A stretch of 64,000 nucleotides of DNA from Lophium mytilinum. Its lineage: Eukaryota. The position numbers and the translations under genes were made by a program. The stretch is from positions 2,129,334-2,193,333 of the forward strand of contig MU004185.1 of assembly GCA_010093605.1 (NCBI GenBank), written 5' to 3'. This document shows positions 3,759-56,735 of the stretch, one piece after another (within the stretch, counting starts at the first letter, position 1; every line of letters begins with the position of its first letter). The notes under the pieces are model-generated. The model did not search any database. It was not told the DNA's origin and worked only from the letters and a program-made list of their open reading frames with translations.

Positions 3759-4368
3759 AGTGGTGCAATCCCCACTTTTTGTATGTATATAGACACATGA
3801 GCTTCCCTTGACGACGGAGCCCCGGTAGTGTCCCGGGCTCCAAAACCATAGAACAAAAATACCCAATGTACAAATACGCTCACTACATTACCCTCATGAT
3901 TCCACTTGCAATATTACGACATAAAAGTTGCGCAACCTCTCTCGTATTCTGTTTTAAGACTTGCTTCCAAGTTGCTGATGGAACCCTGGGTCAGACCAAA
4001 ACGGCGTAACAAGTCGATTAGAAGTGTACGGGACTACTCTAATCTGCGTTGTTCTGACTCTTACATCCTGTATAAATGCCGAGGCGTTTGTCCAGGCGCT
4101 GAATATGATGCTGAAAGGGGTGTGGGGAGGAACTAGTTCCGTGAGCTAGCATATCAGTCAAGCATATGCTAGGTTTCGAATCAACGGTCGAAGAATATGA
4201 TCTATCAAGTCATTCTAGAGAGCATTTGGAAAATGTTCTGGCTTCGAACAGTACCTAGTCATCACCCTTGTCGATCTCTCACGTGATGCTCATTGACCCC
4301 ACTTCTCTATTTCAACCTCAACGTTCAGCTAGACCAAGCTGCAAGAATCACGAACCAAATGAAGCAAG

Positions 4369-5382
4369 ATGTCCTCCGCACTCCTCCCACCCTCTGCTCT
4401 CCCTCTACCTCTTGAGCTCTTTCTCCAGATTATTGAACACATTGTCGCCACCCCTCATGGAGCGGTCCCAATTGCGTTTCCCCAATCAGATATCCGCACT
4501 CGCACATTGTACTCTCTTCTTTTCGTCTGTAAACCTATATCCAAGGCCGTGTCTTCTTACCTCTACGCCTACTGTCTCCATCTCAACACTCCCTCCCGTG
4601 TCGAGAAGATCCGAGCGCAAGCCGGCCCTCCCGACAGCGGCTGGCTCAGCAGGTTGATATATGGCACCCCGCAATCCTTCGAGCCGCCTCCAATCACAAG
4701 TCTTTACCTTTGCCACAGCATCCCGGAATGGTATCAGTACGAGAACCTTCGAGTTTCCACCGGCCTCCTCAAGCTCGTGGCGCCAACTTTGAAACGGCTT
4801 GCGTTATTCCTCCCAGTCGCCAACATCTCGCAGGCTGTGAGGTATGAGCTCACCGGCGGCGCCTTAGCTCGCCTTACGGTGCTTGAAGAGCTCGTGAGCT
4901 CACATAGTGCTTTCTTTCGAGACCCAGGACCTGACGTCACGCTTCCCTCGCTCCGGCGGCTGGCTCTTACCGGACCGCTGCATGAACAAGAGCTAAAATT
5001 CTTATCAAAATGCACACACCTGGAAACCCTAGTCTATCGACGTAACTGGTTCGAAGCCTGGTCCGATCCTAAGGAAATTGACGACGTTTTCAATGCTTAC
5101 ACCGGGCCTGCGCTGCGAGTCATGCTAGTGGCTGAGGCCATGCATCACGGCCCGCCAAAGGGCGGTCGGACCTTCCACGAGGATGATCCAATCAAATTCT
5201 ACGAAGTTGACGTGCCGACGAGCTATTACGGGGATGAGAATGCCGAACACCCGTTATGCTATGAGTTCATTCGGGAAGGCGGGGTTAGAGGGACGATCTG
5301 GCAAGAGGAGGCGAGGAAGCTAGAGGACTTCGCGACTGCGAAGAAGAGGTTAGAGAGGATTCGGGCGATTCTGAACCAGTGA
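4369..5382 (+). CDS. Hypothetical protein with N-terminal F-box-like motif and LRR-like segments
   Basis: 337-aa intronless ORF; LPLELFLQIIEHI...LYSLLFVCK F-box-like start; LKRLAL, LRRLAL and LETL repeats. Confidence 0.6.
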   Translation: MSSALLPPSALPLPLELFLQIIEHIVATPHGAVPIAFPQSDIRTRTLYSLLFVCKPISKAVSSYLYAYCLHLNTPSRVEKIRAQAGPPDSGWLSRLIYGTPQSFEPPPITSLYLCHSIPEWYQYENLRVSTGLLKLVAPTLKRLALFLPVANISQAVRYELTGGALARLTVLEELVSSHSAFFRDPGPDVTLPSLRRLALTGPLHEQELKFLSKCTHLETLVYRRNWFEAWSDPKEIDDVFNAYTGPALRVMLVAEAMHHGPPKGGRTFHEDDPIKFYEVDVPTSYYGDENAEHPLCYEFIREGGVRGTIWQEEARKLEDFATAKKRLERIRAILNQ

Positions 5383-8349: not shown

Positions 8350-9121
8350 GTAAGGGGCCGGGGGCTGTTTGTGGGGGGTTTAGCGGGAAGGGGCGGGTGG
8401 GAGTTTGTCCTCTTAGGGAAGTTTGATGCGGTGGGTGGCGTATGGGGGCTGGATATCCGTTCGTTGGGCGAACATATTGTAGATGTTTTGTAGATGTCTT
8501 TTGTAGGAAAGAGGAGTGGTGATGATCAGCGCTCTTTGAGGCTGTAGTAATTATGAGTTGTACAATTTGAGGGTCTCTTCTAAGGGCTTTTGATATAACG
8601 ACCAAGTAAGATTTGGATACGAGTTTGACTTGAAAGTACTACCTGTGCCTCGAACATGACGTATCTGAATTATACAATGAAAAGGTCTACTCTCTTAACT
8701 TGATGTTTAGAACGCAAGATTATTTTATGCCGATAGAATACTGAATTTCGGTCCAACTGAAGTGATTCCCATGTTCAAGATCGGCAACAGCATTGCCCTC
8801 AGCTTCGAAATCCCGGTGATCCAGAACACCATGGTCTTTGCCGCAGATTCTCTGCATAGGGCTGAGATAGGATCAACCGGCCGAAACGGCACCAAGGGTG
8901 TCGATAACCAAGAGTGGGGGAGGGGTGATGGAGTCCACTCCCAGCCCCACCAATGCGATAGAGCTACGCATAGTGATACCGTTAGGATGGTGGCAATAAT
9001 GCACCACCTAGATGAGAAGCGATACTAAAAAGATGAATCATGCAGCGGAGAGAACGAGCAGTACGAGTTTGGAGTTGGAATCCCTTTCCGTTAGTCAGCA
9101 AATATATCCCTGCCAAGCATC

Positions 9122-10283
9122 ATGAAGACCGAACGTGCACCGCCGATCTTGGACTTCTCTGGTAAACTCTCCAACGTTTGATATATCTTGTTCCATTGAG
9201 CTGATTAGAATGGCACAGCTTTCTACGGCACCGATGCCACCGCGAAGCAGAAACTCGTCGACGACGTGCGCGACTGCTGTCTGCACAATGGCTTCTTCCA
9301 GATCACTGGGCACCCGATCCCGCTGGAGCTCCAGGAAGGCGTCATGAACTGGAACAAGAAGTTCTTCGACCTGCCCTTAGAAGAGAAGTCCAAAGTCTCT
9401 CTCCGTAAGCACTCCCTCACTACCCAACCCCATAACCCACCCACTAACCCCCCTCCCAGAAACCAACACCTGGAACCGCGGCTACGAGCTCCTCCGCTCC
9501 CAAATCCTCGAAGAAGGCACCCAACCCGAGCTCAAAGAAGGTTTCTACGTCGGCGACGACATCCCGAAAACCCACCCCTACTTCGTCAACAAGCGCCTCA
9601 ACAGCGGGCCCAACGTCTGGCCCGCCGGCCTCGCCGGCGTCGACGACTTCAAAGCCACGACCCAAGCGTACTACTACGCCGCCGTCGCGCTCGCCAAAGA
9701 CATCCTCGAAGTGCTCGCGCTGACCCTCGACCTCCCCGAAGACTTCTTTAGAGAGTACGCCGAGGGCGCCGTCGCGACAATGCGCCTGCTGCACTACCCG
9801 CCCCAGCAGTCCGACTCGGACGCGAAGCTCGCGAGGGGTATCGGCGCGCACACGGATTTCGGCGGCATTACGATCTTGATGCAGGATGAGGTTGATGGGT
9901 TGCAGGTGTGGGATAAGGAGGTTGCGGATTGGTTTGATGTGACGCCGATTAAGGGCGCGTTTGTGGTCAATCTCGGGAACCTGATGATGAGGTGGTCGAA
10001 TGACCGATATGTCTCGAATCTGCATCGGGTGATTAACCGGAGCGGGAAGGAGAGGTATTCGATTCCGTTTTTCTTTAGCGGGAATCCGGATTATGTGATT
10101 GAGTGTTTGCCGAATTGTAGGAAGGAGGGGGAGGAGAGGAAGTATGCGCCGACGACGGTGGAGAAGGCCGTGTTGGGGGGTTATTCGGATAGTTATGGGA
10201 GGGCGGAGAGGTATAAGAAGGCGCAGGAAGGGGGGCAGGAGAAGGTGCCGGTGGTCGCGGCGAAGGAAGTCGCGGTTGCGTAG
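9122..10283 (+). CDS. hxnY: 2-oxoglutarate/Fe(II) dioxygenase (IPNS-like), probable HxnY orthologue; introns 9162-9218 and 9405-9459; 349 aa
   Basis: PPILDFS, GFFQITGH, NRGYE, MRLLHYPP, the HTD...H facial triad and RYSIPFF. The hxnY label is inferred from family plus linkage to hxnR/S/T-like genes. Confidence 0.75.
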
Positions 10284-10628
10284 GTATATATGTCACTTCA
10301 ACTCAAAATTGTTTGTAACAGTAATGAAACTTCGATCTCTTGGAAGTTAGTGGCATGCATCACGTTGTTAAAAATGGTAACGAATATGTAGTTCCTTGAA
10401 GTTTTTCATTTTTTGGAAGGTCTATATTGATCATGGACCCGGAGGTTTATGGAGGGGTTAAAGAAGTAAGCTGGTGTTCTAGCCGCCAATAGCAATGCTA
10501 TGCAACCAGATTACAAAGAGTTAACAGCAAATACAAAATTTCTGTATCGACTATCTGCCTGTCAGAATGGCAGGATGGTATCAGAAAACAAATAATGAAA
10601 CCTCACAAGCCTGACTTCCTACAACGAG

Positions 10629-12092
10629 CTACTCGTCATCTTCAGCGGCTTCTTCTCCTGAATCGGTATTCCCGTGGGAGTCATCATTGCCAGATGGATG
10701 AAGCTCCTCCCAGTCTTGAATGATCTTCTCAACAGCCTCTTCATCCGCGGGCTGGAACATACCAGACATAGCTGCAACCATAAGGCGTCGGGCAATGATG
10801 TACTCCGGCTTGTAGGCATAGCGAAGGAATTCTCCACCAACGATCTCTTCGAAAGCTTCCTTGAGCTCTAAAGTCTCGGGATCCTCAGGGTCATCTTCAG
10901 CTAGTGTCTCATCCTCATGATCAACGTCTTCGGGAAGCCAGAGCCACATTGGCGGTGCGCAACTCAAGAACTTGGGACCAAAAATTCCGCTGTCCCAGTC
11001 AAGGATGCCGCTGATCTCAACAGTGGTATCATCGACGACCTGGACAAGAATGTTGCGCGCATGGAGATCCATATGGCAGAAGTAGAAGCCCTGGTCTTCG
11101 AAGAGACCCATGTCACCCATCTTCACCGCGATCATCATGAGGTTGGCCCAGAGAGGCTCAGGCGCTCCCCAGTTCGCCTCTTCCCAGTCGCAGAATCGTT
11201 GGAACTGCGTTAGAAGAAGCTCAAGGGTAGTTTGAGGCTTTGCAGCTGAGGTGGTCGTCTCTCCGGTTGGTGTGTCGCGTCGAGGAACTTCGAATTGGAG
11301 AATCTCAGGATTGGGTTTACGAAGGCCAAAGAAGCTCCGCTTGGTACCTATGTACTTGGGACCAACAATACCGGCGCATGGGTTCGTCACCGACTGCAAT
11401 TCAAGCAGTGCTTTACCCATCTCTCGGACAAGGGATAGTTTCTGAGTGTGGTTGAACTCGTCCCAAGCGTCGATCAGGCAGCGGCCGGGGAGGCGGTCCT
11501 GAAGGGAGTAGGGCTTGCCAAGAGCGTTGTTGCTGGTGAGGTCGAGAGCGTGAATCTTTGGGACTGGGAGGTTTGTGTGATCAGCGACATAGCGAAACGC
11601 GGCGATATCGAAGGCAATCTGAGTATCATCTCCGCGCGGGATCCGGAGTATGAGCTGAGATGGATCCTTGAGATGCCAATACGTCGGGAAGCGGAGCTTT
11701 CGTAGTAAGAGCTCGATGAACCACTCGAGTGTCCAAGTTTTCGCCAACGATGGATGGGTAGTGATGCCGATGATGCGGTTGTAGACACCTCCCTTCATGC
11801 GATGGATCTCAAATGCCTCGGGTTTCAAGGACGGCCACAGCCTTTCGCAAAGCCGTGCGACACGAGCCTGGTGGGTCTCGAATGGCTCCTGCTCATATTT
11901 GGCAGTCGATTCCATCGAGACGTCAGAGGCGGCATCGGAATTGTCTCCAGCAGCATCAACGTTGTCGTCGAGTTCAGAGCCTTGGTCAATACGAATGCTG
12001 TCGTCGCCATCCTTCAGGTGAGGAGGTTCAGAGTGGCCAGTGGGTGGTAACGAAGCTTGGGGTAGCTCCGACGCCACGTTCTCAGAGGACAT
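10629..12092 (-). CDS. Aminoglycoside-phosphotransferase (APH)/kinase-like protein
   Basis: 487-aa intronless ORF; GGVYNRI, LILRIPR, LPVPKI, Brenner-like FCHMDLHARNILV and ISGILDWD. Confidence 0.85.
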   Translation of the reverse strand: MSSENVASELPQASLPPTGHSEPPHLKDGDDSIRIDQGSELDDNVDAAGDNSDAASDVSMESTAKYEQEPFETHQARVARLCERLWPSLKPEAFEIHRMKGGVYNRIIGITTHPSLAKTWTLEWFIELLLRKLRFPTYWHLKDPSQLILRIPRGDDTQIAFDIAAFRYVADHTNLPVPKIHALDLTSNNALGKPYSLQDRLPGRCLIDAWDEFNHTQKLSLVREMGKALLELQSVTNPCAGIVGPKYIGTKRSFFGLRKPNPEILQFEVPRRDTPTGETTTSAAKPQTTLELLLTQFQRFCDWEEANWGAPEPLWANLMMIAVKMGDMGLFEDQGFYFCHMDLHARNILVQVVDDTTVEISGILDWDSGIFGPKFLSCAPPMWLWLPEDVDHEDETLAEDDPEDPETLELKEAFEEIVGGEFLRYAYKPEYIIARRLMVAAMSGMFQPADEEAVEKIIQDWEELHPSGNDDSHGNTDSGEEAAEDDE

Positions 12093-13192
12093 TGTGGGTG
12101 GTGAGCTGCTGCCTGACGTATGAGTTGTAGATGCTGGTCTAGTAGAGTGGGATGATGGGGGTTGGTGAGGTGTGCTAGCTGAGAGATTCTGAGAAAGAGC
12201 TATCGAGAGTGAGGGCTTATGTATGCGTTTTCACAGAGCAAAATCCCATGACTTGTCTTTACACAATTCAGTGACTTGGGGAAAGTCTTGAAAGTGAATA
12301 GAGTAGAGATCCTTTGCACTTGCACAATGTGCATTGTAACAGCCCAACGGTGATGCAGCAGAATTATTATCACACAATCTCATTCGACAGTGCTTTGTTG
12401 TCAGTAAGTCTTTGTTCTTGGGAACAAAGGTGAAGTTGTGAGATGACAAGTCGGCGTTTGTGTAGGTGTCAAGCAACCGCCAAGACTAAGCTAGGAGCTG
12501 ACTAAGCACCTCCTTTCCTGGCTTCGTTCTCGAAACTTTGGAGCTCTATTGCTCATACCCATATATGAGAGGCTTTTCAAATCTCTATTGCCATTGATGG
12601 GCCATAACTTTAGACACGCTTGTTCGCCACTGCTTGGGGTACACCCATAGGATATCGAAGATTCAAGGGTGATGTCAAGTTGCGAGCAGCATAGATTAGA
12701 CTGCCTCTTGGCTAAACAACTGATCAATAGCTGGGCTACCCCCTACAGTGGTATTGCGTCAACAACTTTAGAACCAAGCAGTGAGAGTTTTTTGAGCCCT
12801 GACTGAGGCTTCAGCACTATAGCCACCGCCCAAATACCACTTCAAGTACTTCACTGCGTTAGCCTGTGTGTGATTTCTTCGTTATGATACAACAACCCGC
12901 GAAAGCGCTCAGGCTACCGTCGGTATTGTGACTACTCCTAGCTCAGTTGTTCACGCATAGTGTCGTTCATAAACCACAGGCGCTGGCAAGCATTCACATC
13001 ACCTCGAAAAGCACTGTTGTCACTGCACAACGACGACACCTCCGATGCATAAAAGCGTCCCCTCAAACTGCTCATTTCTCTTCTTCATCACTGCACCACA
13101 CAAGCACCACCACAACTGCAGCCTTCTCCAACCAAACCTCACCACAACACCTCCTCATACCCACTTACTACACCTTACAACCAGATCACAAG

Positions 13193-13453
13193 ATGCCTAG
13201 CCTTCTCAAGGGAAGCACCAAGCACCATTGCCCACTTTACGACACCGGAAAGGGACCATGCAATCGGGTAGGAGGAATGTGCGTCAACCACCAGGTGGTG
13301 TGCTCTACTCACACGAGCTCCTTCCATATCAAGGGAGAGCCTTGCACCAAGTGCGAGCGAGCGGCGCAGATGGCTGCTAGCCGTGCCGCAGGCAAGAAGC
13401 CTCCAGCCAAGGAGGCAGTCAAGAAGGAGAAGAAGAAGAGCAAGTACTACTAG
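13193..13453 (+). CDS. Small (86 aa) Cys/His-rich putative zinc-binding protein with Lys-rich tail
   Basis: ATG in CACAAGATG context after a CA-rich leader typical of fungal 5' UTRs; C13-C23-C30-H33-C37-H40-H45-C51-C54; tail KKEKKKSKYY. Confidence 0.55.
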   Translation: MPSLLKGSTKHHCPLYDTGKGPCNRVGGMCVNHQVVCSTHTSSFHIKGEPCTKCERAAQMAASRAAGKKPPAKEAVKKEKKKSKYY

Positions 13454-13899
13454 TGCTTGTTCTAACTTGGACCCGTGGTCAGCTCACAATTGCCCGGCCC
13501 CCTCTTTCTAGCCCCTGAGCGGTGGCTTCAACAGTTCGGTTTGTTGTCCTTAGCATATTGGTACATGACGGCGCTTACCCAAGACAAGGACTCAGAGCTC
13601 AACAAGATCGAGCTTTAGAGGAAATACATCGCTGAGACTGCCTCAGCGTAGACGTAGACGGTTGCTAGTCAGGATGTACCTGGAATGAGTTAGTACATTG
13701 CGAAAGGCGTGTACATAGAGCTCTGAATCTCCCCTTGGTGTGTCTACACATGTAGATCACCGCCCCCAATCAAGAAAATACCCCAAAATTGGTGCCCAAT
13801 GACTATAGTAAAAGTGATATAACGTGATATGTGCGTCAAGTGATGATAACTTTACATCTGTCTGCCGTCGTCTGAGGGAGCTCAGCGAGCTTACAGATA

Positions 13900-14515
13900 G
13901 TTTAATACGATGATTCTTTCTCTGTTTCAGATCGCTGAAATGTGTTGAGGCACCAGTGATAGTGGCGAGAAGGGCTACACAGAAAGGATTCGGTTAGAGA
14001 GGATCACGCCAGCAGTCCTCACTCCTTAGCTTGAGAATTGTAATCTTGCTCGCTCGACGCCACTATAAGGAGTACCCCAGCCAGAAGATATTAGCTTCGT
14101 CAAAAGGTAGTCCAATTTCCACGGCCCTGGTCTTTACATCGTATCTGGAGTTTCAAAAGTGAGTCGGGGTACCCCAAACAGCGGTAGGGGGTGTCCAGAC
14201 CTCTGCCACTCGATATTCAGCTCCGGTGCCGCGAGTCTGCCCGCCCTCTCGAGCGCGTGCCAGTCCGGGACGAAGAAGACGATGCTGTGGATGAAGGGAT
14301 ACGGCGTGCTTCGTTGATGAGATAGCGGTGAGTACGGAAAGGGGAGATGTTGGGGATGTTGAGCTGACGTGACTGAGAGAGGTTCGCGATTTTGCGGCTG
14401 CACCGCGAGGCGTGGTTGAGAGGTGATATCGGAGAGGGTTTTTGGGGACCTTGGAAGGTGACTGGGATGCTTAGGGAGGGTTGGGTTGGATTGGACATCG
14501 GGCGGAGCTGAATGA
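13900..14515 (+). pseudogene. Possible degenerate gene relic
   Basis: Coding-like stretches (LHRIWSFKSE.., RFAILRLHREAWLRGDIGEGFWGPW) interrupted by stops; intron-like GTGAGT...GCTGAC...AG at ~14328-14380. No family recognised. Confidence 0.25.
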
Positions 14516-14903
14516 TGAATGGGATGATTGGGATGGTGTTTCTGCATGCCCTGTGATACAGGGTCTTTATTGGCCCAGAAGAGAATGAGAATTGGAGAAG
14601 TACTCACAAGCTGAAGACACACCTAGAAGTTGGAAGAAGACCTGCTATGAGATGTCACATAACCTACGATGAGAATGAGAAGAAGTCCGAAGCGACCTTA
14701 CTGAACACGCGAAATCGGGAAAACCATTGGCCTTACACATGAAGCGTGAAATTGTTGCTGCGATTGAGTCGTTTGCCCACTTATTCATACCCTCGACTCC
14801 GCCTCAGCACACCAACCCAGCGGCCAGAATCCATATAAGAAAAAAACCCAACCCATAAACCATCTAGTCGTAACTCATAACCTTGCATTCCCTTTTATGT
14901 CCT

Positions 14904-17900
14904 CTACGCAAGTCCCTCGTACTGGCTGACCAACCTCCACGGCACCAAGCCCCTGAGCACCATCATCCCATCATGCACCACCGCCCAGCGGACCTTACTC
15001 AAATGCCTCGCCACCACAGCCGTCAATCCGCTCGTCCTCTTGCGTCCACCTAGCCCGAGACCCGCAAGCGCCTCCGCAGGCACGCTCGTCATTCCACTAA
15101 TAAGCGCATTCATCTCGGCCTTCGCATCCCAGATCATCTCATCGTCGTCGTCATCACTGTCTTCAGCACGCTCGTCCGGTCCAGCTTCACTAGGGTCTGC
15201 ACCCGCAGGACGCGCATGATAGAACGCCCAGCAGGTGACAGTCGCGAGGTAGAGACACCAAGGGAAGTGGAAGAGACCCATAGCGTCGAAGCCCTCGAGG
15301 TTCATGACGCCGTCGCGGACGACCCAGGCGGCGTGCCAAGCCGCCCTAGTGGCGTCGCGGCCTACACCGCCGTTCTCGCCTGTGGCCCAGCGCTTGACGA
15401 CGCGCTGGGAGCGGACGTAGTCGGGGCGAGCTACGGGACGGCCTAGGATATGGCGGGCGCCGGCGTAAATTTGTAGGTCGAGGAATTCAGCGTTGAGGAT
15501 TATATGGGCAGAATGGTAGATAGCGTTGTTGGCGGTGGTGAAGGCGGCGAATTCCTTTCGGATGTCGAGGTCTGCTGGGGAGATTTGGGAAGTGTAGTTC
15601 AGGCAGTAGGAGTCGAAGTCTGCTTTCCACGAGTCATAAGAATTCGCCATGCGGGTTTTCCAGTTGCCGAAAGGTGATTCGTTCTCCACGAGACCTGAAC
15701 TTGTTAGCTAATGGATCTGATGGAATGGATGAACGAGACATACCAAGAGAAGTCTGGTCCCTGCGACGCATATCCCAGGACACGGACATAAGGCCGTGTA
15801 AAAGAAGGATCCGCGAAAGAGCATTCATATGCCTGGGTTGTGGATTTCCGCCGGGCGTAAGATACGCCTTGAGGCACGTCAAGAACAGTAGCGGTGCCTT
15901 CTGCCGACGCCGTACTTGATCCCATTGCTCTGCAGCATCTGCCTCCCACACTGCTTGATCGCAAGGTAGCGTTGAACGAAGTTCGAATGCTGACATGCAG
16001 AGCGATTGGCAGAATAGCACAGCATGCTGTGTGTCCCACATGAAGCATAGGTAGGCCAGCCTAGTCCCAATCAGTCACTACTCTAAACTATACCATAATC
16101 AGACTCTTACCGCTTCTTCTGCTCAGCTTCGGCCCAAATACACCAGTCATCTTCTAGATCATCCGAGCCGTCTTCAATAGTTGGTGGGCGTACGGACTGA
16201 CAGTCACTCCTTCGGATAAGATTGATGAGTAGACCATGAAAAAGATGCGACATGTCGTGCTGCTTTTGCCCAGCTCGACTCTTGCCGAAACATTCCACGA
16301 GCAAAATGGTTTGCAAGACCCATAACTCGGGACGAGCAGTGAAACCAACGTTTGCAAATATTTGAGGGCGCAAGACATCATGAATGCACACCTGAATATG
16401 TCAGCCTCGTAAAGGCGGAATGTGAATAGTATGAGACGTACCGCTAGTTGATGAGCGTCTTTCTCGCAATATGTTGCGCCAACTAGGAGGACAGAAATCA
16501 ATAGAAGTGTCTCGACGTGGGAAGCATCGAACGTTGCCTGATGGATCAGAGGATATGCAGTGTTGAATCGCGTGAAGTACAAATCGCAATAAGTCTGTAG
16601 TGAAGAGAGAGATAAAAGAGGATGATCCCTGGTTATGAAAGACGCATCAGGTGTGATGGGCCGAGAAGCGTCAATCAGATCAAGTATCTGGGCCCGCGCA
16701 ACTTCGTCAATGACTGGCAAGCTTCGCGAGCGTTGGAGCATTGACATAGGACGTTCTAGGTCGGAAGGCGTAGCGGCTAATCTCTTCGTAGGATGCGATC
16801 CTTGTTCGTTCATAGACGACTTATGCATAGCTCCCAAATTTGTAGACGATACTAACTTTGTAGAGGTAGAAAGCTGCGAGACTCCGTCGTAACTATAATT
16901 GGATTGAGAGTGGAAGTCTGTAAAGGGAGGAGAGATGATGGGTCCATTTGCCACAGTATAAGAGCACTCAGATTGGTTTGCTGACAGTGAACTATTCTCT
17001 TTGATAGCATCAAGCTCACGGGCGGCTGCAGTCGGTTCTGGTGGGGCTGAGGGAGAATAGTCCGGAATAGACTGTCCACCTGAAACGTCGCCAGACAATT
17101 GAGAAGGGCCAAAGGCGTCTTGCATGAGACTCGAGGGCTCCACTTGGTTTTGACGGGATGACAGGTCAACATCAAAAAGCCAGTTGTAATTACTCATGGT
17201 GGTGAATGGCATATTAAAAGAACTTGCTTTTATGAGAGTAAGCCGGCGTCAAATGAAAAGACATCCGTATACCAGCCTCGACATAAACTGGGAAAGGTAG
17301 AAATACCTGTGTCTGGGTTGAATATGTCATCGTAGGGTACATTATCATCTGGGCCTTGGCCTAAGGAAGCAGCGAGGTCAGAAGACCAAAAACGACCTTC
17401 GACTGGTTGCTGATAGATCTCTGCGGGCTCTATGGTTGCGTTGATGTTGAATGGATTCAGGCTCCATAGGTCGTCGTTTGAAGCGTGAGCGTCTTGGTCG
17501 TCCGAAAAGGACCGACCGTAAGAGTTGCTAGTGGAAATGGGAGGCGATATAGGGACGCCGGCTTGGCGATTAGGGCCCGTGTGGATTTCGAACAGAGCCT
17601 CCGAGGGAGTGTGCTCGCTTGACAGTTGCTGGCTTTGGTCCCGTTGCTGCTGTAGCTGGTGCTGATGCTGCTGTCGGCTAGACTGCGGACGTTTGGTCAC
17701 AATGTTTCCATCGGCATCCTTCCACATCCGTTTCCTGGTGTTGAGGACACCCGATCCTGGCGCACCGGCCTCGGCATCCTTTTGGCGGTGACGGGCCATA
17801 TGTCTTTCTGGGACACATCAGCATGAGTGCAAAGATGGGGAGCGATGCTAGGCCAGGGCACAGTCCATGCAGGTGAAAAGCCCCACATGGCAGTGAGGGT

Positions 17901-18307
17901 GGCGGACAAATCCAACAACACGGTATTACTTAATCAAAATCACCGCCGCCAAGTTCACATGCAATAGGAGAATGAAGCAGAATAGGCAGTCGAAACTGGA
18001 CCCTGAGAATAACGAAGACCCTGAAAATGACGTCCCACTCTCAAGAATGGAGAGAAATAGCAAGGACAGCAGGCTAGAGAACGGTAGACTCACCCAACAA
18101 GTCCTTCCGCTTAAAATGCGCACTGCACCTGTCGCAGGTATTCTCGCCAGCTGTGTGGTTCAACAGATGTCTTTGCAAATGCTCCGACCTTGTGAAGCTC
18201 CTCCCGCACCCATCAAACGCACAGGCAAACTTCCTCAGCGGCGCCCCATCTCCGCCAACCGTCACCGTGCGTTTGCGCTGCGGACGTGTAGAATGCGGCT
18301 CAGCCAT
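14904..18307 (-). CDS. hxnR: C2H2 zinc-finger plus fungal-specific TF-domain regulator, probable HxnR; 6 exons (introns 17808-18093, 17227-17306, 16392-16441, 16061-16110, 15695-15743); 962 aa
   Basis: Fingers CAFDGCGRSFTRSEHLQRHLLNH and CDRCSAHFKRKDLLERHMARH; Fungal_trans-like YFTRFNTAYPLIHQATF, LWVLQTILL, CFMWDTQH. Exon lengths sum to 2889 nt in frame. Adjacent to the hxnS-like gene. Confidence 0.85.
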
Positions 18308-19273
18308 TGACAGTCAGTACAGCAGAAGCTGGCAAGAGAGAAGAAGGCTGTTGAGAGAGGGCTGTGCAGTGACAGCAAGAAGGTGGAGGGTCTAGGGAGA
18401 TGGTGGGATGAGGGACCATGGTGGAGGACATATCCGCTTCACGCGGCAAGCTTCTGGATGCGCTTATCACGCTTCCACGCTCCCAGCCGTTGAAATCGGA
18501 CCGGCAGCGAGTAGATGCAAGGTACTGTCCTCTGTGCTGTGTTGTTGTGCCCCCATCGCGCCCTTCACGCGCCGAGACGGGGTCTGGGATTGGCACATCG
18601 TGGGAACTGCTGCCGACGTCGTCGCCGACGGATGCTCCAAAAGAGGTAAGCCAAGGGCAAAAGTGGGGGAGATGCCGGCGGGCAAGTCCGCGGCGCAGGT
18701 CACAGCGACGGGATTTTGCCGATGGTGATTGGTGTTGCGGACGGCAAGTCGCTTCCGATCTGTGAATCGGGAGGAAAAGACCGATCAGAACCCCGAATTC
18801 GGGGTCACGTGAGGAGATAGATTTCTAGCCGCACCCAAGGGTCTGCAGGCGCGTCTACATGCCTAGAGGGGAAGGAGAGTTTGAACGGCTAGTCAGGGGT
18901 TGTATCTTGAATTGTTACTGGATTGAGTAATTCAGATACTATTGCTTTCCAACATAGACCTCGCAAAGGTACCTGTGTAGCTTGTATCGACCAATGAGCA
19001 TGCTTTATGCCACCATCTGTATATTATGTATGTCCCTTAACGACTTCTAATATTAGTGAAACAGTGTGTAAGCCGTGTAGTTATCCTTTTTGTTGTTTAA
19101 CAAGAGGAGGGGTCGGGGCCGACGAATCTGGGCACACAGAGTAGATGTCTTTTCCTAACACCTGCTGCTACATCGAGCATCTGGAAGTCTATTCCCGTTT
19201 CACTCGATATTCTGGAGTTCTCGGTTGGAAAGTAGTTAAAAAAGTGAACTCATATCCAAAGACTAAGCCTTGC

Positions 19274-22200
19274 TTAAGCGACAGCCACGAAAAAGTTTCT
19301 TTCTCCCTCCTTCTGGACCACCTGGGCCCTCTTCGCCAAATCGTCCGCCACAGCGAGCCTCATCTTCTCCGCTGTCGCTGGACTATCCAACGCCAGGGGC
19401 TCTTTCGCCCCATTCATTTCCCTAGCAGCCTTCACGGCTTCCCTCAGCGCAAAGAATACCGTTGAACCCAGGAAGAGCGGAGGCTCGCCGATGCCCTTGC
19501 TGCTCTGAATGCTCCGTAGATGCTTCCACGACAACGGCTTGCCCTCGTTGTCATACCTCAGCATACTAGCATTGAAGACCTGCGGAATATCCGAAAATCC
19601 CGGGATCTTATAAGTGCCAGGACCACGAGTCGCAAACTCGCCTGATTTCAGCCAGAGCGACTCTTCAATCGTGAACATGCCCTGACCCTGCACGAACGCG
19701 CCCTCAATCTGGCCGTAGTCGATGGCCGGATTGATGGAATTGCCGACGTCCTAGAAGACAGTAAGCAGGAATTCATGTAAGCAGGATTTGGGGCCTGACC
19801 ATCATGAGATCGGTCCGAAGCACCGTATGGTCCCCCGTGAGCACGTCAAGTTCGACTTCTGTGACGCCAGCACCCTGCGTGAAGTAGTAGTACATCGGCT
19901 TCACTGTTTCATGATTCGTGTCTCCCCACTGGTATCCAATCGTCGGCATTTTCCAAAAGCCGTTGGCCGCAAGATTCACTCGGTCTATATAAGCTGCGTG
20001 GGCGATGGTGCTCATCGGCGCGTTAGGTCCGTACTTCTCTCGGAACGGCTGGAGACGCTCATTGAGGATATCGCAGGCATTCTTTACTGCCATGCCGTTC
20101 AGGTCACTTCCTGATGATGCGGCAGTTGGCGATGCGTTTGCTGATTGGTACGTCTGGGTGTCTTGAGTGAAGATAGCATCGACCGTAACTCCTAGTTCCT
20201 GGGCTGCGACTTGGCACATCTTGGTGTAAAGCCCCTGGCCCATCTCCGTACCTCCGTGGTGCAGCAGGATACTTCCATCAGCGTATATCTTGATATATGC
20301 GCCAGCCTGATTGAGATGAAGGGCAGTAGCGAAGCTGAGGCCAAACTTGGTCGGAACAAGACAAATGCCGCGCTTCTTCCACTTGTTTGTCGCGTTGAAC
20401 TTGGCTACCTCAGCCTTCCGAGTCTCGTAATTCGACGAGTCTCCAAGCTGTTTGAGTAGCAGTGGTACGTGCCAGTCTTCGTCGATTTTCTGGAAGAAAG
20501 GCGTCCAGTTCCCGGGTTTGTAGAGATTCCTCTGCCGAAGCTCATCAATATCAATCCCTAGTCCTTCTGAAACGGCGTACATGATCGACTCAGTGAAATA
20601 CATGCCCTGCGGTGCTCCGAACCCTCGGAAAGCGGTGTTGCTATGGGTGTTGGTCTTGCAGACGTTTCCTTTGAGGTAGACGTCGGGGATCTCGTAGCAG
20701 TTATCGAAATGTGTGATGCATCTGTCCATGACCGCACCACTCATGTCCTGAGAGAACCCGGCGTTGTCGAAAATATCTGCTTCTAGGGCCAGTAGCTTCC
20801 CCTCATTGGATACCCCGATCTTCCATCTCGCTTGGCATGGATGTCTTTGACCGCTAAGCAACATATCCTCATCTCTGTTTAGCATGATACGCATTGGGCG
20901 ACGTTCTTTCTTGGCTGCAATAGCTAGTAAGGCCGCGAATGGAACACTCCGTGACTCTTTTCCTCCAAACGCACCCCCCATTCGCTTCACTCGGCAATTG
21001 ATACGACTGCTTGGGACTCCTAGGACTTGGCTGACAAATTCTTGGGTTTCCATGCTGATGATGGTTAGTCTAAGTCTTCAATGGAGCGATGGGGCAACGG
21101 CCTTACGTATTTTGAGTCGAAGACCACACTTCCATAAAACCATCTTCACTCCCCGGTATCACGAGAGCGGCGTTCGTCTCAAGGTAGAAATGCTCTTGTC
21201 CACCGATCCTTGTCTTGCCCTCGAATATGCGATCGCACTTGGCAAAAGCCTCGTCCATGCTTCCGTCAACCGCAACTCCTTTTTTCAGGGCCCTGTTATG
21301 TTTGAAAAAGCTCTTGGCTTCTATTGCTTCGTCGATGGTAAGAATAGGAGGAAGCTCCTCGTACGTAACTTGAACAGCGCGAGCTGCCGCCTGCGCTTGC
21401 AATGCGGTCTCTGCATAGACCATACCAATCACTTGGCCATGGTGACGTACTTCACCATCGGCGAAGTAAGGCTCATCTTTTATCATGGCACCAAACACAT
21501 TTTTCTCTTTAGGTATGCTATCTTTATCGATATACCCAGCTACGCCCGGCATCTTGAGTGCTGGCTCCCAGTCTACATCCAGTAACTTGGCATGTGCTTT
21601 GGAAGACATTACCAAACCGCCAAATAGCTCCTGATCTTGAGGCGGCATGTCGTCGATGTACTCAGCTTCACCCGTGCACTGCTTCAAGGCTGAAAGATGC
21701 GGGATCTGCTTCCCAACTATCCGTTGTTCATTGGGGTTGTAGTCATCCCTGATGCCGGTCGATATATCGCGATGTATTTCTTCGATAATGTCGTTGTCTA
21801 CGCTACCCAGCGTCAGCTCAGAGACTGATTCATGCCAGAAGCGGAAGAACAATGATAGGGCAAGAGTCTTGCGGTAATGAGCCATGCCTCCAGGGACGCT
21901 AAAGCTCAAGTCGAAATCTCTCGTCAGATTGTCAAGCCCAAGCTCTAGAGTCTCGGAGGAGAACCATTTCTTCCCTAGCAGCGCTGACTGCGCATTCACG
22001 GACTCCACCGTTTTCGGAGCCATGCCACCATATGCCAGTACAATGTCTTCAACTTCTCCCTCCTCATTCAGTCGTACCTTGAAGCCTGCAGTGACTATTG
22101 CAATGTCATCATCTTTCCTCTTGGCTTGTTTGTATGCTTTGAGAACTTCACGAGCTCCAGCTTTATGTAGTGGTATCTTGACATGGGTGATGATCCCATC

Positions 22201-23856
22201 AGGCGGTAGACTAGTGGTTCGATACGCGATGAAGAATTTGTTGAGAGGCACTTCGGATAGTCCAATTGACTGGGACCTCACGACAACTGAAGCTCCAGCT
22301 GCAAGAAGAACGGGGTTGGCATCTGAGATTGGGGATGCCGTTGCGATATTTCCAGCTAGGGAGGCAACATTTCGTATTTGACGACCAGCAAAGTAGCGAA
22401 GTTGCTTGCGGAGTGCTTCCAAGACCATCGCTCGCTTTCCTAGCTTTGCATAGATATCTTTGCACATCCTTTCGACCTCTGTCAATGGCGTATTCGCAGA
22501 AAGGAGCAACTCCTCGGCGGTCTCTAGCGCTCCGAATGATGGCAATTTAGTTTGCTTGAGTTCCTCGATATCTGAGACATACACGGCCACGGCATAATCG
22601 GAATTCTTGAAACGAACTTCGACCTGGACTTCACTCGCACCTCCAACAAGCTTCGCAGATGGGTACACACCCTTCAATTCGGCCAATTGATCTAACGTAA
22701 CTGGCCGGAACCATACTTTTCGGCCATTTCCGTAACACAGAGGTTTTGGATCGTATCTCCAGAGAGCAGGGGGGAATATGAGCTCGGTGCCAGGGATATA
22801 CTCTGCGAACTCGATCTGAGGCACTCCGTTTTTCGAGCCTGAAGTGGGAGCCTGGAGGCTGCTCTCTGTCTTGATGCCTTCGGGATGACTCTTGCTAGTA
22901 TCTTGGACATCATTTTCTCGGGATTTGAGAGGCAGAGCATACGTTGTGCCACTGACTTCTGCGTCCTGCATTGGCTCTTTTGTGACTGCAATGTGAGCAG
23001 GGATGAATTCTTCATCAGACAAGGACGATGGTTCTGTTGATGGGCTGCTGCACTCAGATTTGCTCTCCCCGGAGCTGCCATCGGAAGGGGTATCACGACA
23101 GCAGCCTCCTGGCCTTCCACATGAGCCCTTGGAAGGCCTTCCGCTTCCATTGCTAACTAGGCCGGTAATATCTACCGCCTCAACAGAGTCACCATGAGCT
23201 GTAGAGTCTTCTACTAGTTGACCTTTGAGATCCTCGGTGATGAAGGTCTTCGCGGCTTGGAGAATCGGCTTGTAGCCAGTGCATCGGCAGAGGTTTCCGT
23301 CCAAATGGCCTTCTAGCTCGATATCTCTGGCAGAGAGATGAAACTTCCGGGTTTCGACATTGTAGGAGTTCCTGACAAGCGCGTACAAGGACATGACGAT
23401 GCCAGGGGTACAAAAGCCGCATTGCGATCCATGCATCTTTGCTATCCGTTCTTGAAGTGGATGAGGGCTCGCCACACTCCCAAGTCCTTCCACCGTAATG
23501 ACATGCTTTCCATCGATTCCGACGAGAGGAAATAGACAGGCATTTACGGCAAGATGGACGATCTTTCGTTGATCCTGCGAGTCTTTGACCTGGAGAACGA
23601 CGGTGCAGGCTCCACATCCGCCCTCCCCGCAGCCCAACTTCGTTCCTTTTAGGCTCTTTTGGGCTCGGATGTAGTCAAGCAGAGTCCAGTGTGGGTTGGG
23701 GTTGGAAAGTATGACTTTTTTGCCGTTGAGGTAGAAGAAGAGGTCGGGAGAGGTGTAGGTCGACTCGATCAAAGGAGTTAGCGACTCGGCCGCCGTCAGC
23801 GCCTTCGGAGGATCCGCCAGCGGTTTTGGAGGGGTAGGTAATTCCATCTCTTTCAT
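19274..23856 (-). CDS. hxnS: Molybdo-flavoenzyme of the xanthine dehydrogenase family, HxnS type (purine hydroxylase II / nicotinate hydroxylase); introns 21055-21106 and 19751-19799; ~1493 aa
   Basis: 2Fe-2S motifs GCGEGGCGAC, QCGFCTPG and GNLCRCTGY; FAD domain FAGRQIRNVA; Moco motifs GGQEHFYLE, AFRGFG and GIGEPP; LSFATALHLNQ insertion signature. Confidence 0.9.
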
Positions 23857-24284
23857 CAACCCCTGGTATGCGGTGGATCTGGTGTTGGTTTCTCAAAGAA
23901 ATTCATCTCTAGAAACCGACAAGACATTGATCGTGCCTATCGCCACCGTAATCAAGACCCCTCGCCGGGCTGACACAAGTGCTTCCACTGCTGATGGTCG
24001 CGTCTCCGATTTGCTGCACCAAGCTGCCCACTTGAGCCAAGTGCCGGGTGGCATCCCACCTTCCACCCACCTCTGCGACCCCATCTTCGACGCACCGTCG
24101 ACCTGCATACGCCTAGACACGGCCTCCACCAAGGACTGGACGCGATGGTCCCGCTACGTGACGTGCTACTGCATGCACGTAAAGAGTGCCAACACGGCTG
24201 CTCAAAGGGTTTGGAATTTTCTGTGTGATCTACTTTGTCTTTCTTCAATTCCACTTTCTCAATCCTGTTGCACAGTCTTTCAGC
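23857..24284. promoter_or_regulatory. Bidirectional promoter between hxnS-like and hxnT-like genes
   Basis: Head-to-head start codons ~430 bp apart; contains GNGG(A/T/G)G-type boxes (GCGGTG 23870-23875; CTCCAC 24124-24129). Confidence 0.65.
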
Positions 24285-25616
24285 ATGCCCAAAGCACTTA
24301 CTCCCCCGGCTTTCACGCCTTTGGCGGATTCGGCGCTGTTCAAGCCGCTCAGATTTGGACGTTTGTCCCTCGAGCACCGGGTTGTCCAGGCACCTTTGAC
24401 GCGTATGCGAGCAACTAAGGAAAGCGATGGCATCTTTGTTCCTGGCGATTTGCAGGTGGAATACTACAGTCAGCGCGCAAGCAAAGGAGGGCTACAGCTC
24501 ACCGAGGCGACTGACATACATCATTATGTGGGTCTCAATTTCAATTCCAGAAAGATCGTTGTTACTGACGGCAAGACAGGCCAGCGGCTACCCAGGTGTG
24601 CCAGGCGTCTTCTCCCCCTCCCAATTGGCAGGGTGGAAGAAGGTGACGGACGCTGTTCATGCGAAAGGTGGCTCCATGATCTCTCAATTGTGGCACACCG
24701 GGCGGGCTTCGCCTTCATCGTGGCGGGCAGGCGCACAAGCCTTCAGCTCGAGCAACATTCCTCTCGAAGGAGATGCCCTGGATGGTACGAAGTTCTCCGA
24801 CAATCCTCCGCGTCCTATGACCATCGAGGAGATCCACTCGACAACCAAGGAATGGGCTGCTGCTGCGAAGCGAGCTGTGGATGAAGCTGGCTTTGACATG
24901 GTGGAGATTCATGGTGCCAATGGCTATCTCTTGGATCAATTCCTCCACGACAATGTTAACATCAGGACCGACGCATACGGAGGTTCAGTGGAAAACAGGT
25001 GCCGATTCCCGCTCGAGGTCATTGCAGCTGTCAGCGAAGCCATTGGCGGTGACCGCACCGGTATTCGTCTATCACCCTACAACTACTTCCAAGACACGAA
25101 AGACAGCAACCCCAACGAGCACTGGAAATACCTTTGCGAACAGATTGCAGCTCTACCTGAAAACCAGCGCCCGGCATACGTGCATATGTAAGTTTTCTCT
25201 ATCAAATTGTGAGACGACTAGGCTGATGATTTGCTAGGGTAGAACCACGTTTTGATGAGGTCCTCGACGAGCAAGCTAAAATGGACGCCCTCGCATCCTA
25301 CAGTTCCGCCGCGGAAGGCGTGGAGGCCGAACTTACGGTCAAGACCAAGAACTCTCTTATCCCATTCCGACGCATTCTTGCAAAAGCCGGGATCAAGTTC
25401 CTCGCAGCTGGTGGTTACAACAGAGACAACGCTGCTCCAGCTCTTGAGGCAGATAGTGCGGACGCGATCATCTTCGGCCGCTGGTTCATCGCCAACCCCG
25501 ATCTACCCAAGAGGTTGAGCGAAGGTCTACCATTGAACGCATATGACCGAACGAAGTTCTATGGTGGAGACGCTACGGGCTATGTCGATTACCCGTTCTT
25601 TGAAGGCTCTGCATAA
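24285..25616 (+). CDS. hxnT: Old Yellow Enzyme family FMN-dependent ene-reductase, probable HxnT; introns 24528-24579 and 25188-25237; 409 aa
   Basis: VVQAPLTRMRA, YYSQRAS, QLWHTGR, EIHGANGYLLDQF, RTDAYGGSVENRCRF, FGRWFIANPDLP, YDRTKFY; divergent from the hxnS-like gene. Confidence 0.85.
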
Positions 25617-25743
25617 GCATTCCGGGAGTTCCTTGCCGATTCGATGAAGGGTAAGCGTGGACCTGCAGTTGGAGTAAGTGAGGATACCATGGTCCGGTCA
25701 TCTTTGACCGTGTAGACAGGATAGGCAGCATAAACATTCGGAG

Positions 25744-26973
25744 TTATGTCTTACCACTAAAGTTCTCCATAATGGCTTCCTCTGACTGCGTTGCTACTTG
25801 AACCCCATCTTCAAACGAAAACTCGGCGATGAGACCGTAATGATCAGTGACGAATTCCACCTCCTCTTCGGCTTTCATCTTCGCCCTAACAGCCTCATCC
25901 TCAACCACGACACCCATCCCAATCCTCGTTAAGCTTTTGACTCCCACCTCGCCGCTGAAAACTACCTTATCTAGCCGCGTCGGTCCAAACCGCTTCGCCA
26001 TGTTCGCCTCACTCTGAAATCCCCATGTCATCCCCTCTTCTGCACCCTCTATACCTCCAAGCTCCAAATACGCATCCTTGAACCCATTCTCCGTCGGCAA
26101 CGCCCGATCATACTCCCGATTCGCATTCATATCCCCAGCCACAACCCCCGCAACACACCCCCCATCCCCAACCCACCGCCCCAACGCCGCCATCTGCAAC
26201 GGCCGCATCGGCGGATTCGAAGCCATCGAGTCCAGATGCACGTTGACAACCCTCAAAATCTTCTCTTCCGCCTTCCCAACACCGGCATCCTCCCTGTTCT
26301 TTCCCTCTGATCGAACTTGCAGCACAACATCCACACCCAACCCGTCCCTCTGATACTCACTCACGAACCTCAACCTCGCCGCCCGCGCCACCTTTACTCT
26401 CCGATCTACTAATGTTACGGTGCCGTAGCTACTCCCGTCCCAGGCGGCGGGCGTGCGGTCTGTCATCGCGAAATGGGCACGGATCCAGGGCGTTTCGCTG
26501 AGTTGCTTGAGGTCTGAGGCTGTCATTTCTTGGAGGAGAATGAGGACGGCTGTGGTGGAGGGGAGGGGAGAGAGGAGGGTTGCGAGGTGATTCAGAGCGG
26601 AGGCGAGGCGGGCGGAGCCGTGCGGGGCCATGAAGTCGATGTTCCATGTTAGGAGGGTGACAGAGGTGATGGGGGATGGTAGCGAGGGTGAGATCTGGGG
26701 GTTGCGTAACGGTTGGGATGGTTTTGGTTGGTTTTTAGTTTGGCCAAGAGATATTCGATGCCATGTGCCGGTCTGGAAGTAGTATAGGGGCTGAGGTTGG
26801 GGGATGCGTTGGAGTTGGTTTGCGGTGAGTTTTTCGATTAAGGATTGCTTTGCGGGAGGGAAGGTTGAGGACATGATGGTGCTGGGGACGGCTTTGGCTA
26901 GTTGGGGAGAGCGCTTGAAGGGAGATAGGAAAATTCTAAGACTCTCGAGCTTTTGAAATGCGAATCTGAACAT
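25744..26973 (-). CDS. Endonuclease/exonuclease/phosphatase, TDP2-like (start could be the downstream Met at ~26874)
   Basis: EEP motifs LLTWNIDF, ILLQE, VNVHLDS, AGDMNA, TWG, RLDKV and TDHYGL. Confidence 0.85.
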   Translation of the reverse strand: MFRFAFQKLESLRIFLSPFKRSPQLAKAVPSTIMSSTFPPAKQSLIEKLTANQLQRIPQPQPLYYFQTGTWHRISLGQTKNQPKPSQPLRNPQISPSLPSPITSVTLLTWNIDFMAPHGSARLASALNHLATLLSPLPSTTAVLILLQEMTASDLKQLSETPWIRAHFAMTDRTPAAWDGSSYGTVTLVDRRVKVARAARLRFVSEYQRDGLGVDVVLQVRSEGKNREDAGVGKAEEKILRVVNVHLDSMASNPPMRPLQMAALGRWVGDGGCVAGVVAGDMNANREYDRALPTENGFKDAYLELGGIEGAEEGMTWGFQSEANMAKRFGPTRLDKVVFSGEVGVKSLTRIGMGVVVEDEAVRAKMKAEEEVEFVTDHYGLIAEFSFEDGVQVATQSEEAIMENFSGKT

Positions 26974-27490
26974 CTGAAGAAGAATTTGATAGATTAGGCA
27001 ACACTATACTGATCACGTGTGGCTTTGTGCTTTCTCATCCTTTTCAGCAGGGGGAATTTTGGCACTTAGCAATGGAACGTTCTCATTCGATCGTTTTGAT
27101 GCTAGAATCCATCGTGTTGGACACAAGGATGCGCTTTATAGCGAAAAGAGAGTGAATCTTTGAAGTGCAGGGGTCGTTTTCATTCCTCGGCTTCTCCGTA
27201 TCAAGCTAGACCACCCGCGTGGAAGTGGAGTCTTCAATCTAAACCCCCTAACATCCATCGTCACGACAACACATCGTCAAGATCTAGACGTAGTTCCATC
27301 TCATACGCAATCTTGCGAGATTTCTGCACGCAGTTGAGAGATTGAAAACTTGAATTTGGATCAATATCCATTCTACATCGTTGGCAGTGCATGCTTTCCA
27401 CAGCCATCCTCCTGTTACTGGGTAAAACAACTATCCTTTCTCAATCGCCTCTGTTAACAAAGAACATCGTCAAACTGGGTAACATGAAGC

Positions 27491-56484: not shown

Positions 56485-56735
56485 TAGCAATGATACCCCA
56501 AGAATACTTATCAACTGTAATGAAAGTAATATTTGTTCGTCGTACCATTGAGCAGTGCCATCTCGCAAGACCATGCACATGCATCACAGTGCTCGCAATC
56601 TGGCCAAAGCTGGCATCGGCACTCTCAGCGAGCGGAGTCACACCCTCAACAAGCATCCACCGCCATCCACGATCCTACAGCATCGTGGACGAAGCACACA
56701 TCGACGTGTAGCCCAGAACCATCAGCCCAGCCCAG

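Follow-up and report, generated by a model that had tools for sequence, protein, structure and literature searches.

A probable nicotinate-catabolism (hxn) locus in Lophium mytilinum and a candidate promoter element shared with its relatives

Do the XDH-family, Old Yellow Enzyme (OYE), transcription factor and dioxygenase genes that lie close together in Lophium mytilinum constitute its version of the fungal nicotinate-catabolism (hxn) regulon, and which of the known hxn genes accompany them? We addressed this question in a window of 64 kilobases (kb) of contig MU004185.1, in which the candidate cluster spans 9122-25616, from the ATG of the dioxygenase gene to the stop codon of the OYE gene. 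We conclude that the locus is very probably the L. mytilinum hxn regulon, with hxnT and hxnS divergent, hxnR following hxnS, and hxnY lying 4.6 kb further on in convergent orientation.

The first-pass annotation of the window had placed four gene families here, and all four were recovered by Pfam run on stop-to-stop open reading frames (ORFs): 2OG-FeII_Oxy (9381-10283, plus strand), Fungal_trans (16154-17248, minus), the XDH set (19274-23892, minus) and Oxidored_FMN (24400-25616, plus). We built the gene models by hand, placing introns by eye, and then checked them against contigs, including the spliced X3 contigs described below. The four genes, and the promoter that two of them share, are as follows.

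Exons 9122-9161, 9219-9404 and 9460-10283, plus strand: hxnY-like 2-oxoglutarate/Fe(II) dioxygenase, 349 residues, two introns (PF03171 and spliced X3 contigs)
14904-18307, minus strand: hxnR-like regulator, 962 residues, two C2H2 fingers and then a fungal-specific transcription factor domain; six exons, 18307-18094, 17807-17307, 17226-16442, 16391-16111, 16060-15744 and 15694-14904
Exons 23856-21107, 21054-19800 and 19750-19274, minus strand: hxnS-like putative nicotinate hydroxylase of the XDH family, 1493 residues (Pfam set and spliced X3 contigs)
23857-24284, no strand: divergent promoter common to hxnS and hxnT, 428 bases
Exons 24285-24527, 24580-25187 and 25238-25616, plus strand: hxnT-like OYE, a flavin mononucleotide (FMN) ene-reductase, 409 residues (PF00724)

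The annotated layout also stands. The XDH and OYE genes are head-to-head, with divergent ATGs at 23856 and 24285 and 428 bases between them. The regulator gene, with a C2H2 finger in 18095-18307 (minus), lies directly downstream of the XDH gene on the same strand, its ATG at 18307 being 966 bases past the XDH stop. Finally, the stops of the dioxygenase (10283) and regulator (14904) genes face each other across 4.6 kb.

Much of the argument turns on the XDH-family gene, which has the full XDH architecture (Fer2, Fer2_2, FAD_binding_5, CO_deh_flav_C, Ald_Xan_dh_C, MoCoBD_1 and MoCoBD_2 in Pfam). Amon 2017 (PMC5746545) names the residues, in bovine numbering, that tell the nicotinate hydroxylase HxnS from the purine hydroxylase HxA. 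According to this source, HxnS has an Ala between Phe1009 and Thr1010 (FATAL, against FTAL in HxA), His for Phe1013, Ser-Gly at Val1081-Ser1082 (Ala-Ser in HxA), Pro at His954, an aliphatic Phe417 site, an insertion in the second 2Fe-2S cluster and a longer linker to the flavin adenine dinucleotide (FAD) domain, while Arg880 and Glu803 are both lost in XDH-like aldehyde oxidases (PMC5746545).

We aligned the Lophium XDH to solved human and rat XDH and read off these positions. F-A-T-A-L-H stands opposite F-T-(gap)-V-P-F of human XDH, giving the extra Ala and His for Phe1013; AASSGSD stands opposite AASVSAD, with Ser-Gly replacing Val1081-Ser1082; and T-P-F stands opposite T-H-F, with Pro replacing His954. 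At the Phe417 site, Val-Leu faces the Phe-Phe of rat XDH, and both residues are aliphatic in Lophium whichever Phe may be bovine 417. The second 2Fe-2S cluster carries a nine-residue insertion between Cys2 and Cys3, and the linker measures about 142 residues against 35 (Lophium residues 207-349 opposite chain residues 164-199). Arg880, Glu803 and Phe914 are retained, and therefore an enzyme of the aldehyde-oxidase type is excluded. Judged by its sequence, the Lophium XDH is of the HxnS type and not HxA, agreeing with HxnS in every distinguishing feature that we tested.

The four genes are transcribed and spliced. The X3 contigs, which come from the same organism (12 of 15 placed pieces at least 99% alike), skip all 11 modelled introns at GT..AG ends, including an unusually long one of 286 nucleotides that splits finger 2 of the hxnR-like regulator, whereas the DNA run X1 skips none of the 11. 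X3 therefore behaves as a transcript assembly, from which transcription and splicing of the four genes follow. Contigs from a related organism (X4, 90-99% alike) contain 10 of the 11 joints; their cover is nil over 10543-14609, X3 cover is slight over 12867-14028, and the contigs give no expression levels. One X3 contig of 6300 bases (19799-25187) has both hxnS introns (minus) and both hxnT introns (plus) spliced and runs unbroken through the 428-base intergenic region, which suggests either overlapping divergent transcripts or a merge during assembly.

We found the same companions around related regulators. Using 22 aligned regulator homologues we gathered 53 fungal-looking metagenome loci (577,785 bases), against which the four gene models were run by tblastn. 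An XDH gene is present in 20 of these loci, an OYE gene in 27 and a close dioxygenase relative in seven (five distinct; 55-72% identity). Wherever XDH and OYE genes occur together they are divergent neighbours (18/18 loci), and the motif F-A-T-A-L-H recurs in 16 of the 20 XDHs linked to regulator relatives; among the other four, those of L013, L042 and L044 are represented by a gene fragment only and that of L046 is unexplained. The Pfam families neighbouring the regulator relatives (135 ORFs) include MFS, FAD_binding_3 with Phe_hydrox_dim, amidase, SDR and Polysacc_deac_1, for example in L008, L013, L031 and L034. Since the remaining hxn-type families surround the regulator relatives, the regulator family, a single and conserved one, is by its context the hxn regulator family, and, as far as comparison of sequences can tell, the four Lophium genes are its usual companions. 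The claim of an orthologous but partial hxn cluster is thereby borne out, through the HxnS signature, the OYE gene as constant divergent partner, and a regulator family and dioxygenase relatives that sit beside hxn-type genes.

The order of genes varies among these loci. Writing S, T, R and Y for the corresponding hxn genes, T(-)S(+)R(+), as in Lophium, is found in L006, L007, L010, L011, L014 and L029 and, in part, in L005 and L013. Ten loci have S(-)T(+)R(+), the order of Aspergillus nidulans, nine have T(+)R(+) without S, and two, L035 and L036, show R(+)T(-)S(+). In L046 the order is S, T, R, MFS, Y, MFS, V, that of A. nidulans cluster 1/VI plus an hxnV-type gene, with an hxnP-hxnY-type couple present. 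As a separate observation, a T-R pair without hxnS in L017 (445-5496) is adjoined by genes for an FMN-dependent dehydrogenase, an SDR, a SnoaL-like protein and a Rieske ring-hydroxylating oxygenase; they resemble the pfd insertions of Bokor 2021 (PMC8478523), plus an oxygenase that the hxn literature consulted does not report for such clusters.

The regulator model has fingers of the form C-x4-C-x12-H-x3-H and C-x2-C-x12-H-x3-H (zf-C2H2, 4.6e-07), followed by Fungal_trans (PF04082, 1.2e-09). A public L. mytilinum protein of 714 residues matches it at 100% and is without the N-terminal 248 residues: it begins at an internal Met (…M-S-N-Y-N-W-L-F…, in invariant alignment columns) and thus misses exons 1-2 and both zinc fingers. 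Our model of 962 residues, backed by the spliced X3 contigs, corrects this public protein. The best 120 of the 215 matches to the regulator include no A. nidulans protein. Elsewhere, an Aureobasidium melanogenum protein model of 1184 residues contains both PF00724 (OYE) and PF04082, and is probably a fused annotation of neighbouring hxnT and hxnR genes.

The OYE matches PF00724 at 8.2e-55 and OYE-family entries of the PDB down to 7e-52, and shares 51-80% identity with those OYE genes of relatives that have an HxnS-type gene as their partner. HxnT is described as having a substrate-binding His-x-x-Asn (His183 and Asn186) and a C-terminal Tyr (Tyr372), as in OYE1 (Bokor 2022). On inspection of its sequence, the Lophium gene model contains H-G-A-N and a Tyr in K-F-Y-G-G.

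By analogy with A. nidulans, we infer the substrates and the mode of induction as follows. HxnS, with its molybdenum cofactor, FAD and two 2Fe-2S clusters, would convert nicotinate to 6-hydroxynicotinate; HxnT would act as the ene-reductase that saturates 2,3,6-trihydroxypyridine; HxnY would be an accessory 2-oxoglutarate dioxygenase, whose role is unsettled; and HxnR would be the pathway-specific C2H2 activator. The latter probably acts through a box with the consensus CAAGAGTGGGG, found in or near its exact form in the hxnS/hxnT promoter, upstream of hxnR and upstream of hxnY.

This 11-base box is the commonest form shared by the S-T intergenic regions of the relatives. A loose version of the pattern is present in 10 of the 13 regions compared, where its density is 1.14 per kb; elsewhere in the same DNA it is 0.14 per kb. 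The exact 11-mer is present in 26 copies in 17 of the 53 loci, where 0.28 would be expected under uniform base composition. Seven of these copies lie in S-T promoters, all in the hxnS direction, and eight lie 227-342 bases upstream of R, all on the opposite strand; another is 203 bases upstream of the L025 dioxygenase gene. Four copies at one fixed site inside the regulator gene of the type-C loci L028, L030, L031 and L032 probably reflect coding or intronic conservation, and six are elsewhere, some near other hxn-type genes. The fixed distances and orientations of the box in hxnS/hxnT, hxnR and hxnY promoters are seen across L005, L010-L015, L023, L025, L029, L034 and L046, whose hxn proteins are only 51-80% identical to those of Lophium. 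In the window itself, three sites are relevant.

8909-8919, plus strand: exact box CAAGAGTGGGG, about 200 bases upstream of the hxnY-like ATG; the sole exact copy in the 64 kb
18658-18668, plus strand: box with one mismatch, CAAAAGTGGGG, 351 bases upstream of the hxnR-like ATG, on the strand opposite hxnR
About 24054-24062, minus strand: box variant with one base missing, AAGGTGGGA, about 200 bases from the hxnS ATG, in the hxnS direction

The box upstream of the hxnY-like gene has the same distance and orientation as the box upstream of the L025 Y gene. Moreover, the box includes GTGGGG and so agrees with 5'GHGGGG, the predicted HxnR site. That site was predicted from the HxnR fingers, and the real HxnR sites are undetermined according to the authors (Bokor 2021, PMC8478523); the main text of that paper contains GHGGGG and not GTGGGG, and a literature search with a 10-mer of the box returned no hxn paper among the matches listed. 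Upstream of the Lophium hxnY-like gene there is a modest excess of GHGGGG (three sites, reached in 4/500 shuffles) and of the AreA site HGATAR (four sites, 40/500), with no enrichment of either upstream of hxnR. From these comparisons, the box appears to be a candidate HxnR operator.

Around and between the four genes we placed three further features.

10629-12092, minus strand: APH-family (phosphotransferase) gene, about 487 residues, intronless, belonging to no hxn family (PF01636 at 5.8e-18)
12615-14184, no strand: spacer with repeat-like ends and without a supported gene
25744-27003, minus strand: flanking gene of the endonuclease/exonuclease/phosphatase (EEP) family, no hxn gene, a syntenic landmark (PF03372)

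The APH-family gene and the repeat-like spacer stand between hxnR and hxnY, in line with the annotation's claim that hxnY is displaced by unrelated genes. One X3 contig runs through the APH-family gene over 9460-12440 without a joint, and none of the 53 regulator loci contains a homologue of this gene. L010 is arranged in much the same way, with an unrelated histidine-phosphatase gene between its dioxygenase relative and its regulator. An ORF of 173 residues in the spacer (12932-13453) has no Pfam match. The spacer ends (12615-12734 and 14042-14181) show short partial matches to, or coincide with loose ends of, several unrelated DNA contigs from the same organism, and an imperfect inverted repeat of 19 nucleotides flanks the spacer (12627-12645 and 14166-14184). 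The spacer, lying between the APH-family gene and hxnR, may be a relic of a repeated element. We do not label it a transposon, the repeat search having found short, imperfect inverted repeats only. Immediately to the left of the hxnY-like gene lies an ORF matching a fungal rhodopsin domain (PF20684; 7214-7600, plus), which belongs to no hxn family.

Which of the remaining hxn genes are in the window? A Pfam scan of the 167 ORFs of at least 90 residues outside 9000-25700 found no MFS, FAD_binding_3, SDR or Polysacc_deac_1 gene in the 64 kb, as the first-pass annotation had stated. For genes of the hxnP, Z, X, W, V and M types, tblastn of 24 relatives' neighbouring ORFs against the window gave one marginal match, to an amidase-family gene. 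This is a multi-exon gene with the amidase signature at about 56.7-58.6 kb on the plus strand (PF01425 on ORFs 56712-57107 and 57425-57871). It is only 29-33% identical to the cluster-linked HxnN-type amidases, and Bokor 2021 (PMC8478523) treats an amidase of 35% identity as not a genuine HxnN, genuine ones being at 51%. By its degree of similarity, the Lophium amidase is probably a distant paralogue unrelated to the hxn regulon. The genes hxnX, V, W, M, N, P and Z, if retained, would therefore lie elsewhere in the genome.

Several points weigh against reading the locus as an hxn regulon. In the published pathway, the way from HxnS to HxnT leads through HxnX and HxnV, and the steps that follow HxnT depend on HxnW, M and N (Bokor 2022); the four genes alone cannot run this pathway or release nitrogen, because HxnX, V, W, M and N are required. 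We searched for HxnV-type proteins with two queries, an L013 FAD-monooxygenase ORF that is 100% identical to an Alternaria alternata protein and a Mytilinidion resinicola protein, and no Lophium protein is among the best 120 matches of either search, which extend down to 58-61% identity. The hxnY-like gene is without its usual divergent partner hxnP, and neither Pfam nor tblastn located an MFS gene in the 64 kb. The best solved relatives of the dioxygenase are the fungal ring-expansion dioxygenases TraH, SpoC and TropC (about 4e-41). As for the box, its pattern was chosen post hoc, after seeing the data, and the loci are related sequences; within the window alone, the one-mismatch matches (n=3) are unremarkable, 13/100 shuffles doing as well. 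Likewise, GHGGGG and HGATAR are not enriched in the Lophium S-T promoter, with one of each and an equal number in 353/500 and 317/500 shuffles, respectively.

The first two of these points could mean that Lophium keeps a minimal S/T/R/Y module, with hxnX, V, W, M and N and both transporters lost and no assimilation of nitrogen. Such a module would hydroxylate or detoxify nicotinate or other N-heterocycles. Without HxnX and HxnV it would be unable to produce 5,6-dihydroxypiperidine-2-one, the known inducer, and therefore HxnR would sense something else and answer a different signal. The absence of these genes from the 64 kb speaks for this explanation, as does the fact that all four genes are intact and spliced. 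The best 120 HxnV-type matches include M. resinicola (68%), which we take to belong to the same order as Lophium, along with many Pleosporales, Botryosphaeriales and Sordariomycetes, and among them there is no protein of Lepidopterella or Glonium in either search, nor of Lophium. Furthermore, L006, L007 and L011 have T, S and R without any further hxn-type family in their flanks. L006 and L007 carry homologues (44-48%) of the Lophium EEP-family gene next to the OYE gene and also hold a homologue of the Lophium ORF 4363-5382, beyond hxnR; since these two loci with Lophium flanks have T, S and R alone, Lophium is not the only case of a reduced locus at this chromosomal position.

On the other hand, absence from a list of the best 120 is weak evidence, because the Cenococcum hxnR tabulated in Amon 2017 is likewise missing from the best 120 regulator matches. 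The hxn genes of A. nidulans are also spread over three loci (Bokor 2021, PMC8478523), and no substrate is known for HxnT when HxnX and HxnV are missing (Bokor 2022). We therefore regard a minimal module as unlikely, if the best placed of the alternatives. An equally tentative proposal extends it to the relatives: Lophium and those represented by L006, L007 and L011 would keep, intact and expressed, only hxnS, hxnT and hxnR (with or without hxnY) after loss of the ring-processing enzymes and transporters, and, separately, CAAGAGTGGGG would be the real HxnR operator.

A more doubtful alternative is that the regulon comprises hxnS, hxnT and hxnR only, and that the dioxygenase of 9122-10283 is an unrelated paralogue whose position, 4.6 kb off and beyond an unrelated gene, is due to chance. 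Its lack of hxnP, its secondary-metabolite relatives of solved structure and the intervening APH-family gene and spacer would all agree with this, and Y is lacking from the syntenic L006 and L007, which do possess T, S and R. HxnY is described as containing PF03171 and PF14226, with thymine-7-hydroxylase as a close solved relative (Bokor 2022). The Lophium dioxygenase has PF03171 at 1e-26 and PF14226 at 22.5 bits on a partial ORF, below the cut-off, and matches the Neurospora crassa thymine dioxygenase (5c3p) at 9e-29, in eighth rank. We take the structures ranked above it to be newer. A Protein Atlas comparison returned generic 2-oxoglutarate dioxygenase clusters only. What makes chance proximity improbable is the neighbourhood in other fungi: relatives of the dioxygenase at 55-72% identity adjoin hxnR-like genes in L010, L021, L025, L035/36 and L045/46, and in L021 and L025 they are directly adjacent to, and convergent with, the regulator, as in Lophium. 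In addition, the window's only exact box lies upstream of this very gene, as in L025. We thus favour the inclusion of the hxnY-like gene in the Lophium regulon.

That the XDH is instead an ordinary purine hydroxylase HxA with coincidental neighbours is scarcely credible: it shares the domain architecture of, and a strong similarity to, solved xanthine dehydrogenases, but all the residues tested are of the HxnS type and most regulator-linked XDHs of other contigs bear the same signature.

Both the nicotinate pathway of fungi and the reshuffling of its clusters are well described, and consequently one more species adds little on its own. Nevertheless, the comparative evidence for an 11-base promoter element extends an HxnR site that had been purely predicted, and the corrected hxnR model could be useful given that the public protein lacks both zinc fingers. 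Finally, Lophium is a candidate for a lineage that keeps upper-pathway genes without the lower pathway, which would bear on how clusters are dismantled and on the roles of HxnT and HxnY alone.

How does the locus compare with known hxn clusters? Amon 2017 (PMC5746545) screened 139 Pezizomycotina and found hxnS and hxnR together in 85 species, mostly tightly clustered. Its Table S4 marks hxnS and hxnR as linked, in the same-strand order hxnS to hxnR, in Hysterium pulicare, Rhytidhysteron rufulum, Cenococcum geophilum and Botryosphaeria dothidea, and as unlinked, on small scaffolds, in Lepidopterella. Bokor 2021 (PMC8478523) describes gene loss, duplication, reorganisation and sporadic foreign genes in hxn clusters across the subphylum, with the divergent hxnS-hxnT couple mostly conserved in Pezizomycotina. 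Hence the suggestion of the first-pass annotation that this architecture may be new does not hold: the hxnS to hxnR tandem is already tabulated (PMC5746545), foreign insertions are described (PMC8478523), and an OYE gene divergent from an XDH gene that is followed by the regulator occurs in six of our contigs. Lophium itself has no occurrence in the supplement tables of Amon 2017 (PMC5746545), which give only hxnS and hxnR, nor in the searchable text of the hxn papers, the Bokor 2021 supplement aside; among the matches listed for the literature on L. mytilinum, none concerns nicotinate.

Cluster 1/VI of A. nidulans (hxnS, T, R, P, Y and Z; PMC5746545) contains the same four families, with divergent hxnS and hxnT and matching HxnS residues. 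The A. nidulans HxnR has two N-terminal C2H2 fingers and then PF04082, as does the Lophium regulator, in which the basic stretch VLNTRKRMWKD after the fingers agrees at 7 of 11 positions with the published nuclear localisation signal VLETRKRMRRA (PMC5746545). The two loci differ in that the Lophium hxnR follows hxnS and not hxnT, hxnP and hxnZ are not there, and hxnY is convergent with hxnR, with the APH-family gene and the spacer in between. The Lophium hxnR also has five introns (one in A. nidulans) and encodes 962 residues (865), and its HxnS has 1493 residues in the gene model, with a long linker.

The eleven-gene single clusters of Cyphellophora europaea and Hymenoscyphus repandus (PMC8478523) conserve the hxnS-hxnT divergent couple, as Lophium does, whereas in its 64 kb Lophium has only four of the genes, with hxnP and hxnY no longer coupled. 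The Pleosporales-type L013 and L008, both of which stop short of the hxnT side, share the hxnS to hxnR core with Lophium and have the box about 295 bases upstream of hxnR. Beyond hxnR they carry an MFS gene, then an hxnV-type and an amidase gene as a divergent pair, and a Polysacc_deac_1 (hxnM-type) gene, a block that is missing at the Lophium locus. Among the Dothideomycetes, the gap from hxnS to hxnR is about 0.5-0.7 kb in Rhytidhysteron and Cenococcum and 2.2 kb in Botryosphaeria (PMC5746545), against 966 bases in Lophium, and the two introns of the Lophium hxnS agree with the number that the supplement of the same paper gives for Pleosporales and Botryosphaeriales. Altogether, the Lophium locus extends a known system to one further species, with a gene arrangement that is usual for its class of fungi.

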